A stretch of DNA of 49,831 bases, filler included, from Perkinsus olseni (Eukaryota): assembly GCA_013115125.1 (NCBI GenBank). It is 2 parts of 2 records of this genome, joined end to end, with 100 filler letters (N's around TTAATTAATTAA, not from the genome) between each part and the next. Parts side by side here need not be neighbours in the genome. Positions count along the whole stretch, not along the records: positions 1 to 24,923 come from JABANN010000503.1; 1 more part is not named here. The stretch is one strand, 5' to 3'. The translations under genes and the position numbers were made by a program. Under the pieces are notes generated by a model. The model saw only the letters and a program-made list of their open reading frames with translations, had not been told where the DNA came from and did no database searches. Positions 15,550 through 26,520 of this stretch are shown here, one piece after another (the stretch's first letter is position 1; every line of letters starts with the position of its first letter).

Positions 15550-18500
15550 TCAGCCCATTCCGGGAGGTGGGGCGTGGAGATTTCCCATCATCCCAGGTGG
15601 AGGTGCGTGAAGGCTTCCTCTTCCTCCACCATACCTCCCCGAACTCTCCGCCGCGGCGATCTCGGACTCAACGCGTACTTGGTCCTTCGGGATGAACAAA
15701 CGCTGGAAAATAACCACTCTGCGGATCGAACCCGGGACCTCGCCCATGCTTACCTTATTCACTTTCGCCTCAAGCTGGACATACACCTTCGTGTCCGTAA
15801 CATCAATGACGTTAGCCAGCTGGCCCTTGTAAATTCCTAACACTCTCCCATCATCTCAACCATCTCCTACTAAATGCACCCTCACCTTTAATAATCCGTA
15901 TTCTCTTTCCGACCAGCCTCGAATCTCCCTTGCCTCCCTTTCCTCCACCATGATGACCTCCCTTACCACCACTACCCTTTCCACTACCCTTCTCGTGGTG
16001 ACCCCAGGATGAAGACGACGAACCACCAGCATTCCATCCCCAACTCTTATCATTCCCACCGCCCCACTGAGATCCCCAGCTGCCTCCAGAAGACTGATGC
16101 TGCTGCTGCTCATTGCCAGATCCAACTTGCGGTGCCAAGTCATCCGGTCGAACACCGCCTCGACCTGTCACAAAGATTCCTCAATTGCAACCACTCACTC
16201 TAGGACCTCACCCTTTCCTTTGCCGCCCTTTCCACCCTTCCCACCAAATGCTCGATTGGCAACAAGCTCCACCTGGTGGCCCGTGATTGCTACTATACCT
16301 CCGTCCTCAAGACGATCGTTAACCTGTCGAATCCAAATCGATCAGCGGGGCGCGCGCTAAGTCAACTCCTTACCTTCACCCACGCTACATTGCTCATTAT
16401 ATGCTTCACCTGGGCTCCTCTACCGGCTAACGGATGTGGTGCAAGAATCTTCAATAGAGCTCTAAAACACAGCAAGTCCTATATAAAAATACCCGCACTG
16501 GGAATCGAACCTGCGACCCCCTACACCAAGCGACAGACCTACCCCGGTTTAAATGGGTTATTATTAACATCCATCAGGAACACCACTTTAGAGTCTCGAT
16601 GCCGGCCCAGGCTCCCCACAGGCACGTTACGTGGCCTGTTGTCATTACCAATAATCTTTGCCGTCGTACCTGCCGCATCAGAAACTCAAAAGCTGAGAAT
16701 CCCGAAATATCGAACGACTTGCTGTCGACAAGCCAAGCAGCGAGGAAGGAAACTCCCATGAAAACTAAAAACCCCCACCTTAGCGTGAATGTCCGAACCA
16801 GGGAGAGAACAGCGTACGGATTCCAGATCCGCCTCGCGCCTCACCCCCAACTTACCACTGGCCGCGATGCTGACAATAACCCCCACGCCGGAGGAACCGC
16901 TGACGTTGAGGGTAACCAAATCACCGACCTTGTACTGGCCGATCCTGAACGATCACGACACTCGATTACGATTAATGTTCCCCCAGCCTCCCACGAAGCG
17001 TGACAGTGCGGACGCCCGAAGTCGATTACTCTTCCTCAGAATCTTCCCAGACCCTTCTCTGCGTATTTATGGACTACTCACTTTTCAATCCCCTTAGACA
17101 CCTCTGCCGTCAACTTTAGGTTGGAGCTTTGGCACTTCACCTCCCGAGGCTCGTTGTCAGTAAGAACAGTGGCCACGGACCCACTCAGTTTAATCACCGT
17201 ACCAGTATCCCCAGCAGACGCACCTGAACCAAACGAGAAACTGATACCATCCCGATCACGGCTTACCGGCATTCAACCAAACCGAAGTAACCATCAGTAA
17301 AGGTTGAGAATTAACAACACTTTCATAGCGAGTGGCCTCTACGTCAAGCTCTATTGAATCGACATTCGCCTTCCCTATATGGCTGGCGATGGGTCCGATT
17401 CCACCAACAAATTCGATACCATAACTCCCAGACTTTGCGACCCTCTACCACTACGATAATTTCTCCCTTCACCGCGAGAATGAAAATCCCGTCTGAGCGT
17501 TCTTTAAAACGTGGGTTCTTCCTCCCTCGACCGAATTTGATAGTAATGGCGTCCCACCAAAGGACTCACCGTCCAGAATTTTGACATGATCCCCCATCTC
17601 GAAGTGCTTGCTAAGGTCCTTGATAGCCACCGTAACTTGGGCTCGTCCGTGACCAGGATCCACATTCACACGTTTTCTATCAGTATCGATAGTAACCTGA
17701 CAGAAACAGCGGAGCGAAGCAATTCATTTTATACCATTTTACGACACAGGCCACTGCTCTAACAACCGTGAGAAGTAGCGTTAGCTCGATCACGAGTCAT
17801 GGCGAGAACCGAAATGAGAGCTACCCTCTGTGCTCAATAAACTTGCCCTAAAATCATCCTCTTGAAACAAGATGCATCAGCGGTCCTAGTCGCACCAAAT
17901 CGTCTTTCGGCATTGGACTTCAGACCCACACGCACAGTCACGGAGCCACCACCATTTCAATCACCGAAAGAACCGAAGTATCAATTTAGCAGATTGATGC
18001 CACAACGACAAGACGATAATCAGATTTCCTTCCGCGACCACTCATTTCGTCCAGATTATTACCACTTTCCCTCTCAAGTTCTTCATATCACCACCATTAA
18101 CAACTACCGAGTCGCCAACAGACAACGCCGCTGCTGCACGACTGCCCGACGCCTCGGACTGCACAGGACGACAGAGAAATAAAAATAACAACAAATTTCT
18201 GAGGGAATTTCCTTACAAATTGGGAATTTCTGGAGAAGGTGTTTGCGAGCTCTCAACCTCTCCTGCGAGCTCCAGTGAAAACCCTTCGCACACTCGCCTC
18301 AATTTTCTTTATATTTTTCTGTATAAAACTTCTCCCTTCTATTCTCTATCACAGCACAGACCATCACGCACCCCGCAATTCCTGGTCAGATTAGTCAAAA
18401 GTTTTCGGACACGACAAGTCCGAGAAAGTTTCCGAACGACCGTTCCCTCCCGTTACTACCATAGACGCAGCGGCAGCAGCTAATAAGGCTTGTCCTTCCC

Positions 18501-21500
18501 CGCCTGAACGAGAAGATGATTTGGGGGAAAGTTGGTATGAGATCTCACCTGCCGCTGCACTTCCCAAGAATTCCGAGATCTCAGTAATACTCGGCTGGAC
18601 ATCATCCCCGGTGAGCAAAGCATTCCGCTTGAAGCGTCGATAGAGATATCCATCCTGCGATAATTATTCGTACCACACCTTCACCAACTCTTCCGCAATT
18701 CACTCACCTTATATCTCTCGTTCCTATACTGATCGAAGATCTCGTTGGGGTTCGTTGCTGTGCGGTATCGCACTCGCTCGACCGCTCCTTGACCTGAGCT
18801 CAAGGCACCGAAATCTTCGCTGTGCGCAGAGTATCTTTATCCACTAAAGATTTCCACCACCAACCCTAGTCTCACACAAAATAGGATACATCATCGGTGA
18901 CACGCATCACTCAGTATAGCCATTGCCCCTGCACTACCTCCCCTATTCTCAGCTTCTATCGGATCAAAGAAGCTAGCATGAGGTCTTGGCTTCTTGGTAG
19001 TCCTTCGACCGAACAACGCCGAGTGGGCTTCCCTGATGATGCGTTGTTGTTCAGTCAACATAAACAGCCATGCTCACTACCTTGGATCCTCATCATAGTT
19101 AATCCTCGGACGAATCTTTACCTCCACGTCCATATCGAAGGACTCCACCACTTGGGCAAGATCGTTCTGATCGCACAAATCTACAACTAGCATTCCTAGC
19201 GTCCATCAGGTAGGAGAATAACGAGGTCCACTGGGCATGAGCCTGCCTCACGCTTCAACGATCCATGATTGTTGCCGTTGAAAGCGCGATCATAATAGAC
19301 TCAATATTCAGTTTATTCGTGGCACTCTAAAACACGGCTGACTCGCCGTGATAGCCTACTCGCTCGCCCTGAGGATTCCTCAGTGAGGAAACACCTCGGG
19401 CTGTTCTGCAGTACACTGTGAGGATTATGAGATGGGAAGGATTATGAGGATGTATGATGTATGAGGATTACTTTATATATTGCTAATTCAGTGACTGTGG
19501 CTGCAGTACACTCCTTAGCCATCTTGGCTGTTCTGTAAGCATAGTTGATGTGTGCCACTCTGATGTTATTCATGGTTGCGCGGTGGCACGCATAGACAAC
19601 AGCGTGATCCGTAGCGGGATCGATATTATCGCATACAGTGTACGTATGCACATAGTTACATCCGTCTTTGTGGCCTCTTGTTGTGTCAAAAGTGCGGGAA
19701 CGGCAAGCGAACTACATAGCATTGCCTTAAAACGGAGTGCCGCTGGGCAGCTGCTATAGCGAGCCGAAATGCCCGTAAACGCTACCCAGTATACTTACAC
19801 TGTACACAGGATGCCTCTTTATCCGCACCCACTCCCCCATCTTCAACGGCACAAAGCGGCCCTTCGCTGCCTCCTGTGCTGACCGGAAGACTCCAAGCAT
19901 CTCACTGGCCGGCACCACCTTCACGGAGTTACTAAATAGCAGAAAAAAATTCTCACTTTGCACCGCTGCAACAAAATAGAGCACAAGCGTTACAAAGTCG
20001 ATGAATTCCCTCAATAAATCACATGAAACTCTTCAGAAATCCTCAGGCGTTCTGCTTCAATATCAGTCTAATCGTGCTGTGCATGCGTGCATAGCTACAA
20101 CTCCAGTCCCCGGTGGAAAGACTTCACCCTCCTTCCCGCCTTGCCTCACTATGAGCAACAACGGAGAAGCCACAGTTCCTTAGATGGTATAGAGTTCAAC
20201 GTTAGTGTAAGATTACCACACGGAGAAGACTCTAACCTCCACCTGTTGGTCTCCCCACTTACGCATTGATCTGCCTTATTCCTGTCACGAACCGTTTGAT
20301 GTGGTTCACACTCTTCCCTTCAATGTAGATATAGCTCTTCAAATTATCACTAGCGAATGCCGACAAGATACCTGCCAAATCGATCACGTGATCGATCATC
20401 CCTCATCGTGAACATACGACTGTCTGCAACACGAACGTGCCTTCCCCGTCATTCCCAAATAGCGTTTAAATTACCGCCGGAGTTTTCAAGTGAAGCGAAA
20501 ACAGCGACCACGACGAGCCCCTCAAGTTTCCCATCATTACCAGTCTTAACGCCCTTCTTCCGGAACTGCTCGTACTTGGTGCTCAGTCGAGTGATGATCT
20601 CCCTCTCATGTCCAATATCGAAACACTTTACCTGAAAAGAGAAGCTAGAGGTGTCAGAAAAACCCAAGAAGACGGTAAAATTCAGAATTGTGTTTATCAC
20701 AGTGGAACGCTCATTGGCCGGTTTCAGTCAAAATCGGATCGATCACGCGATCGATTTTATAAGATACCATCCTCAACCCAGTATCTTACAAGGAAGAGCT
20801 TCGAGTCCGAAGGCTCGGGAAGCGGACCAGCTTCAGGCAACTCGCCCAGAGAATCTGCCGAACATCGTCAAATCGGACAAGCAATCTCACTACTACCATA
20901 TCCCCCCTCATCCGCAGAGGAGTACATCGGCTCCGACGGAGGCGGCGGCGACGGCGACGCCGTGCCGCTGATATCAACGGTAAAAACAAAGCCGGACAGC
21001 TTCGCTCCGCCTACCTGCCAGTTTTTCTGTGCCTCTCGCCCTTCCTACGCTCCCTTCGTTCAGCATCAGAAGGAGATGGCGAGCTCGCCGAAGCCCGCTG
21101 AAGAAATGAACCATACGCAAGCCCAACGGACGGCCGCCGCGGCCAAGACTAATACCAGCAACACGTGCGGTTTGAACCTCCGCACGTTCAATGCGCACAT
21201 TCTAGAGACTATGGTCTTCCCTATTAACGTACGCGCCCTCCTCCTACCTGTTCTCTTCTCTTGGCCGCTCTCCGCTCCTCATGATGTCTCTTACTACTAC
21301 TGCTACCCCCACCACCCTCCCGTTGCCGGCTGGGGTGCATCACCTTCGCAGCAGCCGCAGCAGCAGCCTGTCGTCTGATACAGTTATGGACGTACGACTT
21401 CTTTCTGACACCTCTAGCTACGACTACCGAGCTTCCATCTCTCGTCTCTGCTGGACGCTCTCTCGCCTTTGCTCCTGTTCCGCTGCGGCATGCTCAGCCT

Positions 21501-22330
21501 GTTGCTCCTCGTTCTTCGCTCGCTCCTCCCATCTACCGTGATTTGGGCAAGTTTTGGTATGACGCACACACACGCCTGTCTACCTCTGAATGAGATCGCC
21601 AAATCTCTTCTGACCACGATTCGGCCGACTCGCCCAGTCTTCCTGCTGCTGATGATGGGCCGCTGCCCGACCTGAACCAGTTCATCCCGGGAACCTCTAC
21701 CCCAAAGATACCACCTTTAGAACGCCCGGCCTCATCCTCGAAGTCCTCCTCTTCGTCGGAGTCCTCTTCACCAGCCTCTAGATCGAGGAACTTATACCTA
21801 GTGAGGAATCGTCCGCGGTGAATCGGTGAAGGAGTGGTAGGAGACGCTACGCTTTTGATTTCTTCTTTTTCGCAGGCCGTTGTTGTCCACCGTTGTCAGC
21901 AGGCACCTCCTTCCGTTTGCGCTCCGTGACCTGCAAAGCAACGGTAGGGAAAATCTAAGCGACGCGTCACGAGCGTTAACGAACAATCACATAGGGAAGG
22001 GGATAGAATCTGTTTCCATGAATAGCGAAATAGATGGTATTAGATATTCGCTTAATGCAAACGTCGCGTGTGAGGTTCGAACCCGGGACCTCAACTCTGA
22101 TACACCGTGCAAGTCCCCCTTCTCCCTCGGCACAGCCGTATGTGCGACGCTGTCATCCATCTAATACCGTTCCTCCCCCCGGTATTACCTTGGCTGCCGC
22201 CTTCCTTCTCCTCTCCGTCGGTGACGAGTCAACACTGGAAGCATCATCGGACACGCTTGAGGCCGCCGACGAGGAATCGCTGACATCATGAACAGTAGGA
22301 TCAGTAGGAGTACCATAATACCACTGGTAC
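15550..22330 (-). CDS. SPT5: Transcription elongation factor SPT5, multi-exon
   Basis: Acidic N-terminus (KFLDLEAGEEDSDEEEDFED), NGN domain (VKCFDIGHEREI...SYIYIEG...VVPASEM), successive KOW motifs (GEWVRIKRH, VGDSVVVNGGDMKNLRGKV, FEMGDHVKILDG, GKRIRIIKG/YKGQLANV). Stop at 15550; 5' end approximate. Confidence 0.92.
19336..19660 (-). mobile_element. Putative LTR remnant with PBS-like sequence inside a ~610 bp SPT5 intron
   Basis: Minus strand begins TGTAAC (19660) after a purine-rich run, contains ATATATAAA and ATCCTCATA repeats, and ends ...TATCA (19349). It is followed by CGGCGAGTCAGCC, resembling a tRNA-Arg PBS (TGGCGAGCCAGCC). Confidence 0.4.
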
Positions 22331-22872
22331 TACTACTATCAGTCAGTAGGCACTTAGGTACATATAGGGGACGTGACCGTCTCGAATGACGGTAAATTTG
22401 TGGCGGGTAGCTCTACAACATTCCTCCGATCGCCCCTCCACCCTACTACCTTCCGCTGCCCTCCCCTTCACTACTGGATACAGCCTTATCGTCGTCCTCT
22501 TCTCGAACCATAGGAGAAGAACAACTCGATAATGACACCAATAATGAACCACTACAACGCAACGCCCATACTAGTTGGCACGGAACCCGAGAGGTAGCCG
22601 GGAGAGGCAGAAGCCTGGACTATCAATCATGATGGTCGAGAAGATTGAAAGCACCTGTGTCGGGGAGAGTCGACAAGACCACTTTGTCGCTGTACGACAT
22701 GGGAATGCAAGGGGAAGGCCTATTAGCAGCTTCGAGTCTTCAACCACAACTGACGGCCGAACAACAACAACTTTTCGACGTATGAGGACACCCCTCGGAT
22801 ATTATCACGATCTGGTTGATCTCGGACAATCCCTCACTACCATAGCAAACAATTACGGCTGAGCGAGGGTAT

Positions 22873-22960
22873 GATTTAGGAAAAAGTTGGTACGAGACTT
22901 CACATGCCGCTGGGCTCCCCAAGAATTCCGAGACCTCCGAGAGTAATACTCGATTGGACG
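22873..22960 (-). pseudogene. Degenerate duplicated fragment of an internal SPT5 exon/intron junction
   Basis: aaagttggtacgagacttcacatgccgctgggctccccaagaattccgagacctc...agtaatactcgattggac aligns with 18519-18600 (aaagttggtatgagatctcacctgccgctgcacttcccaagaattccgagatctcagtaatactcggctggac). Confidence 0.75.
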
Positions 22961-23226
22961 GTTAAAGATCCCAGCATGAATTTGAAGTAGAAAGTGAACT
23001 CTCGAAGGACCGGTACCCGGACTCGAAAGTACCATCACGAATCGAAGGTCTACGTGCAAAATAGAAATGTCCGTTCCAGCGTCGTACGCCCAACCTCGCT
23101 GACCTCCGCGATTTTGACGCGATAGATCCCTTCTGAGTATCAGGAACGCTCTTAGAATTTTACAAGTTAAACTCAATCCTGAAATTCCAGCGAGGTCTGT
23201 TGAGCAGCCCGTCTTTTTCTAAACTA

Positions 23227-23869
23227 CACCTTTTTCCCGAGCAAATAAAATATTTTTTCGTTCGGTTTAAACCATTTTGATAGCAATTTAGCGAGTGTCA
23301 TGGGAATTAAAGAATTGTCAAACCAAACTGGTTTTGTCACCCAAATTAAATTTATGAGCAAATGCGATTTAACACGTGCCATTCTATTTAAATAGATTTC
23401 GATCCAATTTCGATATCTAAATCATTCTGCTACTGCGACCTCCTTCCTGCATCTGGGACATATACTCATGAAACACGGGAGAACTCTACAGCTGCCGCTT
23501 TTTGTCGCTCTTTACTTCAATGATTCGAATTGGAGGAGCGCTGCCACGTGCCAGATGCCGGAGCAACTCTGTGAATTACAGTACATACCATATCGCACGT
23601 TACCCTCAGCGAGTATTGTGCCTTAGAAGGCCGACGCGACTGGCGGTGATTATATTGAGGCAAGAGCTAGAGTATAAAAACTTGACGATGTGGCACGCAA
23701 TTAACAACGAGCATGCGCGCAGCTTCGCGCGCTCCCTTCAATTTCACAACTACTTTAGAATATTTCAAATTGCATGGAAAGTGGATGAAAACTATTTTAA
23801 AATGAAATTCGGTTTTTCGTACTCTTTTAAATCAAATGATAAAACATTTTATTTGCTCGGGAAAAGGTG
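23227..23869. mobile_element. Non-autonomous TIR element (MITE), Tc1/mariner-like, 643 bp
   Basis: Terminal inverted repeats of about 45 bp: left CACCTTTTTCCCGAGCAAATAAAATATTTT..., right ...AAAACATTTTATTTGCTCGGGAAAAGGTG. TA dinucleotide on both flanks (23225-26 and 23870-71). AT-rich, no transposase. Confidence 0.8.
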
Positions 23870-23910
23870 TAAACGCACTCCATCGGTAACAGCGAATTGT
23901 TATTAGAAGT

Positions 23911-24074
23911 TGTAACTGGTTCCCGGGTGTTTGGTCGTCACTGCTCATACACAATAGGTTGGTTGGTGGGAAATCTTGTCTATAACGAATACTTTGGTAC
24001 TGATATCTGCGTCACACGGCGACGCGTGCTATCAAGGACAACAAGATAGCAAGTTATACTTCACTTCAGTGACA
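23911..24074 (-). repeat. 3' LTR (164 bp) of a Gypsy-like retrotransposon
   Basis: Minus strand TGTCACTG...CAGTTACA (TG...CA ends, 7/8 inverted terminal match), immediately preceded by a polypurine-tract-like AGGTGGCGGGAG overlapping the integrase stop. Confidence 0.8.
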
Positions 24075-24084
24075 CTCCCGCCAC

Positions 24085-24923
24085 CTAGTGATTACGAATA
24101 CACCGCTTTCCCAGCACCTTACATAAAAATTGGGATTTGGTGTTACGAAATCGATCGACTAGTAGACTATCAGTCTCGTGCCATACCATACATTTCGAAC
24201 ATTGAACCCATGAAGTAATTGAAGGATCAGAAGCACGAGGATAGTACCTAGTCAAATTAGCATAAAGTTGGATTGGCGAAATATCCCTAGAGGCACTGTG
24301 ACCTCCTACGGGCAAAATTTTGCATGTACTCGGACTGATACATTCGACGATACGAAAGGGACCAGAAAAGTCCGGACATGCTCGCTCCTTAGACGGAGTA
24401 AAAACTAGGACGAGATCGCCTTCCTTGAAGGAAGGGGTCTGGGCCGCACCATATTTTCGTTGAAGTGCTGCTTGTTGTATCTCCTTCTGCTTCTTCCAAT
24501 ATAGTTGGTAATCAGAGAACTGAGTTTTAGTGATAGCAACAGACTCAGCATGTAACTTAGTTAAGAACTCCTGCTCCACGGGGTTCAATAAATGTTGTAC
24601 ACCAGAGACCAGATTGGATAGATCTTCTGTTGGATCAGATGGTACATCACAGGGTATTCTGCCAGCATAGGCATAAAAAAGGTATAACGGGCATAGGCTA
24701 CTCTGAGAATCATAAGGGGTACTATTCATGATAAGTTGGAAATGAGCAATACGCTCGGGCCAAGCCTCAGGCTCACTGCCAGTTAAGAAATCTGCCTGCA
24801 GAGCTTTACGTACAAACCTATGACACGCCTCGTACCAGCCAGCATAACCTCTAGCGTAGGGTGGTAATATGGCAATTTGTATTGCCTTTTTTGCACCCCA
24901 CGCTTTAAGCTTCTGATATTGGC
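24085..24923 (-). mobile_element. Ty3/Gypsy-like integrase C-terminal half with GPF motif and terminal CW-type zinc-finger-like domain; 5' part lost in the gap
   Basis: Open frame from the gap: ILPPYARGYAGWYEACHR (catalytic-E helix), MNSTPY..LCPLYLFY, FKEGDLVLV, FSGPFRIV (GPY/F), then WVQCSKCMVWH...FLCKVLGKRC*, followed by PPT and LTR. Confidence 0.85.
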
Positions 24924-25022
24924 NNNNNNNNNNNNNNNNNNNNNNNNNNNNNNNNNNNNNNNNNNNNTTAATTAATTAANNNNNNNNNNNNNNNNNNNNN
25001 NNNNNNNNNNNNNNNNNNNNNN
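24924..25022. other. Assembly gap with artificial TTAATTAATTAA six-frame-stop spacer
   Basis: N-run, ttaattaattaa (24968-24979), N-run. Confidence 0.97.
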
Positions 25023-26520
25023 NGATGGCACCGCAGAGTGGCTCATGTGAGTCCTCTTCGCTCGAATTGCGAGGCCTGCCGTAGTTCGGCAGGCGCATCG
25101 CGGCTTCTACCGCTTCAACAGTGTCGTACGGTTCGAAACGCGGCCCTTCGTCTGTGGTGGACCCACAAACCGGTACAAATACCGTGCTGAAGTCGCCTTT
25201 ATGACGCATCTTGAGAGCCTCAGTGATAACGATTTCTTGTACCTCGAACATCAGGTGTACATCGTTTGTACTGAAGCCGCATCGTGTCGTGAGGACGCGG
25301 TCGTAGCATTCCTTGGTAGTCAAGCAAGATATATCTTCCACTCTAAAGCCTTCCAAGCATGTCTCGTTATTTCCAATGCCGATTAAATTCTTTGAGATGT
25401 TACTCTTGGCGAACTGGCTAGGCGTAGTGAAGTACGGTAAGCCTGCTGATATGAGGCCTATCCACACGGGCTTGGGCGAGGCCTGGATCACATGGGACAC
25501 GACTCGCACATTCCAGTCAGTCAGCTCTACTGAGAACTGGCTGAAACGATAAAGGTTGTGTTTCTTCGCTGTAGAGTGATACGAATGGACATAGGCTGTG
25601 TACATGCTTGCGAGGTAAGTGGCGAGATCCTCAGAAACGGAACCAACGATAGGGAGCGTTTTGCACCAGCAAGAGTTGCCCATCCAAGAAAGAGTCGCTC
25701 TATTGAAGATCCAGAACCTGAATATGGCCCGCGATACGCTGATAATATTTACCAGAATGTCGCGATTACGCAAGACGAAATGCATACATAATAGGCAAAA
25801 ATCGAAGAAGCGAAGGTTAATAATGGGCCTGCTTCTCAGGGGCAAATGTGCTGTTTGAATGCAAGTAACTCCTGAACTTCAGGACCTCAAGTTGCCTTAA
25901 TTGAAGTAAACTTGTGAAACAGGCCCAAAGCCGAGAGATCAGGGGGAGCTCAACGCCTTACAATGGGCTCTGTTGTTGGGTAGCATGATTCTCAATCTCA
26001 ACGAGGTCGCTGAACACTTCGACCGACGTGCGCGGCTCAGGAGCCGTGACGTTAATGCCAATCAGAGCGTTCATGCTGTTCATTTGCCTGACTGAGGTTA
26101 CCTTGGAAGATGCGGCGGAGAATTCTGAGTTCTGAATTCATCATGGAGAGCTCACGAGGGTTCCGCAGGTTGTTGTTCAACGTGTTGCGGAACTCGTCGA
26201 GCGAACGAAGAGAATGTATGATTGTGTCAAGGATTAGCGGTGGTTACTCGGGAGTGAGCTCGGGCTTCAATCGGGTCTCCTCGCCAGAGGTGACGAGGCT
26301 GAGATTAATGCCGAATAGTAAAGGAAGAACTGTAACCACCAGGACCATGAAAACCTGAATCAATGCGTGCACCCCTACTTGCCGATGTAGCCGATCGTAC
26401 TGGGCAACATAGCTCCATTATGGTTGCGACAGGGTGGCGTCTCTTGACACGGTAATTCTTCATGAGCAATGCTTTGAGCTGAGAACCGGCTCCTGAATGA
26501 TGCTCTGCCTCTGCTGTCAT
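25023..26520 (-). CDS. ABC transporter subfamily A, 5' part (first TM plus extracellular domain), truncated by the gap
   Basis: First exon MTAEAEHHSGAGSQLKALLMKNYRVKRRHPVATIMELCCP matches the ABCA N-terminal signature QL..LL.KN....R......E...P. Next exon VFMVLVVTVLPLLF (TM1); a long exon ends EPLCGAI at the gap. Confidence 0.75.

Follow-up and report, generated by a model that had tools for sequence, protein, structure and literature searches.

Does the integrase of a retrotransposon from the protist Perkinsus olseni end in a histone reader and, if so, in what class of element and to what effect? The question was raised by a stretch of DNA of 49,831 nucleotides (the window), for which an earlier note had proposed, from the sequence alone, that a Gypsy-type integrase ends in a CW-type zinc-finger-like module at the position where chromoviruses carry a chromodomain. 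Insertion of LTR retroelements is set by tethers, which include the chromodomain, LEDGF, BET proteins and TFIIIB, and the chromoviruses (Ty3/gypsy elements, e.g., Tf1 and MAGGY) are known for their chromodomain-bearing integrases. A CW finger on an integrase, if true, would constitute a new natural tether with a predictable target, namely nucleosomes in a given H3K4 state.

The window contains on its minus strand a stop-free pol frame of 278 amino acids (24088-24921), which according to alignments with homologues is the 3' part of pol and encodes the C-terminal half of an integrase. This fragment begins within the catalytic core, where the string GWYEACHR has the presumed catalytic Glu, and its 5' side is cut by a contig linker. 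At its other end the final residues, ...SWVQCSKCMVWHETDSLLVDRFRNTKSQFLCKVLGKRCIRNH, are directly followed by the TAG stop codon of pol (24085-24087, minus strand); the C-terminus reads SWVQCSKCMVWHETDSLLVDRFRNTKSQFLCKVLGKRC-IRNH, and the C-terminal string in full is ...ITSWVQCSKCMVWHETDSLLVDRFRNTKSQFLCKVLGKRCIRNH. The string that had been given for this end was correct as far as it went but lacked the final four residues, IRNH. Upstream of the tail lie the motifs FKEGDLVLVF and GPFRIVE, part of the predicted SH3-like beta-barrel of the integrase with its GPY/F region (FKEGDLVLVF...GPFRIVE...ISPIQL; 24244-24429, minus strand). In an AlphaFold model of 129 amino acids the strands at residues 21-76 form this barrel, for which the best Foldseek matches were the Ty3 integrase 7q5b (E 0.027) and Tudor, Agenet and chromo-barrel folds, none of them at E≤0.001; this comparison is dominated by the barrel and is uninformative for the tail. 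Relatives of the fragment likewise give weak SH3_Tf2-1 and Integrase_p58_C matches in this region. The barrel is followed by the CW-like, putatively single-zinc module (W-V-Q-C-x2-C-x2-W...RF...F-x-C-x6-C; 24100-24210, minus strand), which was delimited by conservation and predicted fold and corresponds to fragment residues 238-274.

The contig that bears the element ends immediately upstream of this pol fragment. Two runs of 44 N each (24924-24967 and 24980-25023) flank the twelve letters TTAATTAATTAA, which contain stops in all six frames, and from the form of this string we take N44-TTAATTAATTAA-N44 (24924-25023) to be an artificial six-frame-stop linker between contigs and no part of the element. 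Sequence read across 24924-25023 is thus no real adjacency, the gene neighbourhood included. Because the element is cut at 24923/24924, inside the integrase, only the final 278 codons of pol and the sequence downstream of them are present in the window. Beyond the linker, in the other contig that starts at 25024, no pol domain was found in any frame; a string TDEGPRF in that sequence is coincidental and belongs to another contig.

The class of the element has to be read from its relatives, as the region that would hold the diagnostic domain PF05380 ('Pao retrotransposon peptidase') falls, for the window's own copy, beyond the contig end. An all-against-all HMMER search with the 278-residue fragment returned 48 proteins at E≤1e-3, four of these at E≤1e-30, and a word-indexed search with best-match alignment returned eight at E≤1e-5. 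Identity to the fragment is about 100% for P0001, 69% for P0050 (1333 amino acids, from a Logan assembly), 45% for P0002 and 40% for P0003. By their source names P0001, P0002, P0004, P0005 and P0049 come from P. olseni, and P0003 and P0006 from Perkinsus chesapeaki. Full-length relatives show the domain order aspartyl protease, RVT_1, PF05380, Integrase_H2C2 and integrase core, with PF05380 above its 22.3-bit cut-off in P0003 (E 2e-15), P0049 (E 2.2e-14) and P0050 (E 4.9e-18). In these same three proteins the gypsy-type RNase H models PF17917 and PF17919 gave no match at E≤0.1, and a chromodomain was not detected on the window fragment at E≤10. The presence of PF05380 and the absence of gypsy RNase H in the full-length relatives indicate a family that is BEL/Pao-like and not gypsy-like. 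Among the 30 relatives of at least 683 amino acids, to which the marker count is confined (of the 18 shorter ones, only P0001, P0002 and P0005 were scanned), 24 carry PF05380, five are gypsy-type and one has neither marker.

This distribution bears on the class named in the earlier note, which has to be given up. A Ty3/gypsy, chromovirus-like integrase in which the chromodomain had been swapped for a CW finger would agree with the existence of the GPF/GPY motif and the SH3-like region, and the five gypsy-type relatives (recognised by PF17917/PF17919 and/or SH3_Tf2-1) do match the fragment, but they align only over query residues 141/161-227. The PF05380-type relatives, by contrast, align over most of the 278 residues and carry Integrase_H2C2 and rve; together with the composition of the full-length proteins this makes a gypsy origin very improbable. 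We read the element as the terminal 3' portion of a BEL/Pao-like LTR retrotransposon from P. olseni, truncated by the contig end. BEL/Pao was described as a metazoan subclass, with the Pfam model PF05380 used as marker (PMC3118150). In BEL/Pao elements PF05380 follows RVT_1 and is in turn followed by Integrase_H2C2 and the integrase core, an order found in the Perkinsus relatives and also in the nearest relatives outside Perkinsus. The Perkinsus family differs in residing in an alveolate protist, in its sub-threshold rve matches and in the extra C-terminal zinc module. No report of BEL/Pao-type elements in Perkinsus was found in the literature searched, where variants of the name may escape a match. 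Their occurrence in a protist parasite of molluscs would prompt the question whether they are of ancient standing there or have moved between host and parasite. Two features of P0003 were observed in passing: where a CCHC knuckle is usual, its gag region (residues 288-311) has strings of the CCCH zinc-finger type (zf-CCCH, E 0.0011, under the cut-off), and its residues 1545-1643, over the SH3-like region, give a marginal match to the EVE domain (23.5 bits, cut-off 23).

Conservation of the tail was assessed on an alignment of six sequences, the window and P0050, P0002, P0005, P0049 and P0003, whose tails are 80, 46, 30, 40 and 42% identical, respectively, to that of the window. By these identities, conservation of the tail roughly equals that of the integrase. 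All six tails share R1, W10, Q12, C13, C16, W19, R29 and F30 (alignment numbering), so that the Cys and Trp residues whose variability would have spoken against the proposed module (C13, C16, W10 and W19) are invariant. The second Cys pair, C-x6-C, is present in five of the six; the exception, P0003, is an incomplete record, whose sequence runs into a Gly-rich string and stops short of the pair. The first Cys pair reads C-x4-C, not C-x2-C, in P0049 and P0003. Ahead of the third Cys stands F in four and V in one of the five tails that extend so far, and P0005 has Ile in place of the His that follows the second Trp. The module shares its reading frame with pol and recurs in six copies, which represent one genus and at least two species, and no stop interrupts this frame before the end of the tail in the window, P0002, P0005, P0049 and P0050. 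Every database score of the tail lies below significance, as would suit a chance arrangement of Cys and Trp in a pol tail without function or in sequence reached by read-through. Such an origin is nevertheless extremely improbable given that six copies keep the pattern, four of them at only 30-46% identity, that five copies keep the frame open, and that the six-frame translation of the 49.8-kb window contains the expression W.QC.{2,4}C..W once, whereas 200 shuffled windows do not contain it at all.

The distribution of the module among the relatives is narrow. Only four of the 48 align beyond query residue 230, and one, P0012, has a Pro-rich end that is devoid of the motif. Most BEL/Pao-type relatives stop about 15-30 residues past the SH3-like part, which makes the module an addition specific to the Perkinsus clade. 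That it was 'captured', as had been suggested, is unproven: a search with the tail profile against 5.8 billion proteins of more than 100 amino acids, aimed at further tails and a host donor, returned only the five known Perkinsus proteins, and because this search needs shared five-residue words the absence of others is weak evidence.

What kind of zinc finger the tail represents was addressed by profile searches. On the window fragment the Pfam model zf-CW (PF07496) matched residues 238-267 with an E value of 0.07 and 13.6 bits, over profile positions 2-29 of 47. Its gathering cut-off of 27.5 bits was reached neither by the window (13.6-14.5 bits) nor by P0005 (14.8 bits). When the six tails were scanned singly, zf-CW was found in three (best E 6.1e-4), PHD_ash2p_like in two and PHD in one, so that zf-CW is the commonest Pfam match among the tails but none of the matches reaches threshold. 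A profile of the six tails gave 11 matches in the PDB at E≤10, eight of them to the CW domains of MORC3 and MORC4 (best E 0.046) and three to PHD fingers, in an alignment confined to a 14-residue core. No sequence match is significant alone, because the domain is too short.

These searches left room for a PHD finger. The tail might derive from a PHD finger, as a remnant or in variant form, or be some other treble-clef finger, and not a CW domain: phmmer with the window tail against the PDB returned PHD fingers only (six of six matches: ASH1L, MLL5 and 1wee, E 0.056-1), and PHD_ash2p_like (E 0.028-0.057; 0.057 for the 71-residue tail) scores slightly above zf-CW on this sequence. PHD fingers that read H3K4me, such as those of ASH1L and MLL5, are locally similar to the tail over (I/V)QC-x2-C-x2-W, and the two folds are related. 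However, a PHD finger needs eight ligands (Cys4-His-Cys3) for two zinc ions, while only four Cys are conserved here, which makes one zinc site possible; the first Cys pair and the His-x2-Cys of PHD fingers are missing, no Cys pair occurs within 35 residues upstream, and the candidate His is the residue replaced by Ile in P0005. With CW domains (the PF07496 family of H3-tail K4 readers that includes MORC3/4, ZCWPW1/2 and SDG8/ASHH2) the tail shares the core spacing and four Cys, here putative zinc ligands in the arrangement C-x2/4-C...C-xn-C, and two Trp on a predicted beta-hairpin, the cage tryptophans of the W-x-Q-C floor and the C-x2-W wall (W10 and W19 in 6/6). A further hallmark of CW domains is a third conserved Trp just before the third Cys, which in the Perkinsus tails is F or V, and the loop between the third and fourth Cys, of six residues, is shorter than is usual in known CW domains. 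Since the score is below the cut-off and the third Trp is missing, the tail is classified as CW-like and not as a member of zf-CW. The module is also set apart from CW domains by its context, at the C-terminus of a retrotransposon integrase.

The predicted structure of the tail was compared with solved folds. An AlphaFold model of the 55-residue tail, built on the six-row alignment (mean pLDDT 77.1), places strands at S-W-V-Q and W-H-E-T, along with two short helices; six sequences make for a shallow alignment, and the motif by itself may have been enough for AlphaFold to reproduce CW structures. Foldseek against the PDB placed the CW domain of SDG8 (5yvx) first, with a probability of 0.95 and an rmsd of 1.1 over 33 columns, and CW domains in nine of the first 11 rows, no row reaching E≤0.001. 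A VIA-align 2 search of 48,161 representative chains gave 13 matches at Z≥2, none of which reaches 5; CW domains (SDG8, MORC3, ZCWPW2 and MORC2) occupy ranks 1-7 and 9, headed by SDG8 (Z 3.9, rmsd 2.5, 42 residues aligned), and the remaining five rows are PHD fingers that read H3K4me. These five of 13 rows again bring PHD fingers into consideration, yet CW chains outrank all PHD chains in both searches (Foldseek ranks 1-3; representative search ranks 1-7), and together with the ligand count this renders a PHD identity quite improbable. In an atlas of language-model features, three zf-CW clusters head the matches of the window tail (0.94, 0.92 and 0.91) and zf-CW accounts for 18 of 30; the tail of P0049 gave no usable match, so that one of the two tails tested points to zf-CW. 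For the tail model, then, CW domains are the nearest solved folds, though at low scores (Z 3.9). Of the proposal that the integrase ends in a CW-like module, the conserved Cys4/Trp pattern in the last ~40 residues and the closeness to CW over other kinds of finger can be retained, whereas the profile scores remain sub-threshold.

In CW domains, H3K4me3 sits in an aromatic cage, and MORC2, in which the 'floor' Trp is replaced by Thr496 and Trp505 forms the 'right wall', shows no binding (PMC5811534). Once the first Trp is lost, as in MORC2 with its Thr496, H3K4me3 is no longer bound (PMC7596504, PMC5811534). The MORC4 counterparts are W426 and W435, which enclose Q428 and D430, and the MORC4 CW domain also binds DNA (PMC7596504). 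The spacing of the Perkinsus tail (W, Q+2, C+3, C+6, W+9) equals that of MORC4 W426, Q428, D430 and W435, and this spacing, together with the invariance of both Trp, leads to the proposal that the module binds the H3 tail. We consider it probable, by a modest measure, that the module represents a CW-type zinc finger of divergent sequence, is fused to a BEL/Pao-like integrase and serves as a tether to the histone H3 tail. A single-zinc Cys4 module of ~40 residues would here follow the usual SH3-like barrel of the integrase and would consist of a beta-hairpin with W-x-Q-C-x2-C-x2-W, a short helix with the conserved RF and the C-x6-C pair. Its ligand may be the N-terminal tail of histone H3, with one K4 methylation state probably preferred, and H3 binding could tether the integration complex to nucleosomes that bear the mark. 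Both the preference for a methylation state and the effect on integration are proposed by analogy with chromodomain-bearing integrases.

A real and conserved CW-like zinc module might alternatively bind DNA, a host protein or another component of the intasome, and not histone tails; stabilisation of the integrase multimer would be one such role. The CW domains of MORC2, which binds no histone peptide, and of MORC4, which binds DNA, offer precedents (PMC5811534, PMC7596504), the third wall of the cage is not conserved as Trp in the Perkinsus tails, and the end of the tail is basic (KRC-IRNH, RECRR). Against a non-histone partner, both cage tryptophans are invariant in all six tails, and it is the loss of such a residue that explains the failure of MORC2 to bind; we therefore regard a non-histone function as unlikely, while giving it real weight. 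A bolder extension of the H3-tether reading, that a BEL/Pao-like lineage outside animals acquired a CW-type reader of H3K4 methylation and inserts next to active gene starts, is possible but on the doubtful side.

If the H3-tether reading is correct, the role of the module would be analogous to that of the chromovirus chromodomain, with another fold, in another class of retrotransposon and presumably for another mark. Chromovirus integrases likewise place a small histone-mark reader after the SH3-like/GPY-F region, with a presumed tethering role. They differ in using a chromo barrel instead of a zinc finger, in being Ty3/gypsy instead of BEL/Pao-like, and in recognising H3K9me where the Perkinsus module would recognise an H3K4 state. 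The Perkinsus family would exemplify the capture of a reader domain in a second retrotransposon class and, on the bolder reading, a second, independent invention of histone-mark-guided integration, with a reader fold not known from other integrases. In the literature searched, a body of text with most subscription journals outside its coverage, no description of a retrotransposon integrase with a CW finger was found. The module also represents a compact candidate histone-binding module in Perkinsus, in which chromatin readers have been little studied.

The sequence downstream of pol fits the end of an LTR element. Directly 3' of the stop lies the purine-rich GTGGCGGGAG (24075-24084, minus strand), a candidate polypurine tract by its position, followed by a candidate 3' LTR of 164 bp, TGTCACTG...CAGTTACA (23911-24074, minus strand), which bears out the earlier note in placing a polypurine tract immediately after the frame. 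The candidate LTR, of the form TG...CA, was delimited by contig ends and word depth, and its terminal inverted repeats agree at seven of eight positions. Contigs from public sequencing runs, compared over 22000-24923, have loose ends at 23911 and 24075, that is, at both ends of the candidate LTR, and a 35-kb contig that represents another locus aligns with 23909-24065 at 17 differences. Word depth in the DNA-like run X2, which is 44 for the unique flank and 50-95 along the pol part, reaches 343 over 23960-24057. Loose ends, the match at another locus and depth are together consistent with a short LTR of a low-copy family. The LTR had been described as intact, which cannot be shown from the one copy in the window; no second copy occurs there because the contig ends inside the integrase.

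Between the candidate LTR and the next gene sits a high-copy inverted-repeat element of 647 bp (23225-23871), with terminal inverted repeats of 47 bp (TACACCTTTT(T)CCCGAGCAAATAAAAT...) that are 87% identical and a word depth in run X2 of 1257-2877, the flank having a depth of 44. This MITE-like repeat is separate from the retrotransposon. A further run, X11, which has a different organism code, contains three short contigs identical to 22187-22280, 22762-23025 and 23856-24093.

The position of the element, placed by the earlier note about 1.6 kb upstream of SPT5, had been taken as consistent with insertion near promoters. SPT5 KOW models match two of the seven minus-strand ORF pieces downstream (KOWx_SPT5, E 3.8e-4, 16689-16952; KOW5_SPT5, E 3.2e-4, 15553-15855) and the other five pieces gave no match; the two matches indicate an SPT5-like gene downstream of the element in the same orientation. 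That part of the description stands, but the distance is only approximate. A single insertion near one gene has no statistical weight for targeting. The SPT5-like gene (15553-21895, minus strand) shows many short exons with KOW-type pieces, and an acidic ORF in its region (21536-21895) has no Pfam match.

Some indications of transcription come from the same public runs. Contigs of runs X1 and X8 omit the 170 bases 22280-22449, which have GT..AG ends on the minus strand and are retained in the DNA-like run X2. Because the GT..AG segment is skipped in X1 and X8 and not in X2, the former two are probably spliced RNA, no run being recorded as RNA; 22280-22449 is a spliced intron of a transcript that lies upstream of, or belongs to, the SPT5-like gene. 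The cover by run contigs continues past this intron to 23282. In run X1 a contig of 1467 nt spans 24329-24923 with three differences and extends 872 nt further into pol, a weak hint that a copy of the element is transcribed; the kind of run is itself a guess. Within and upstream of the SPT5-like gene, a direct repeat of ~100 bases (18501-18600 and 22856-22959) occurs in two copies that are 79-80% identical and 4.4 kb apart.
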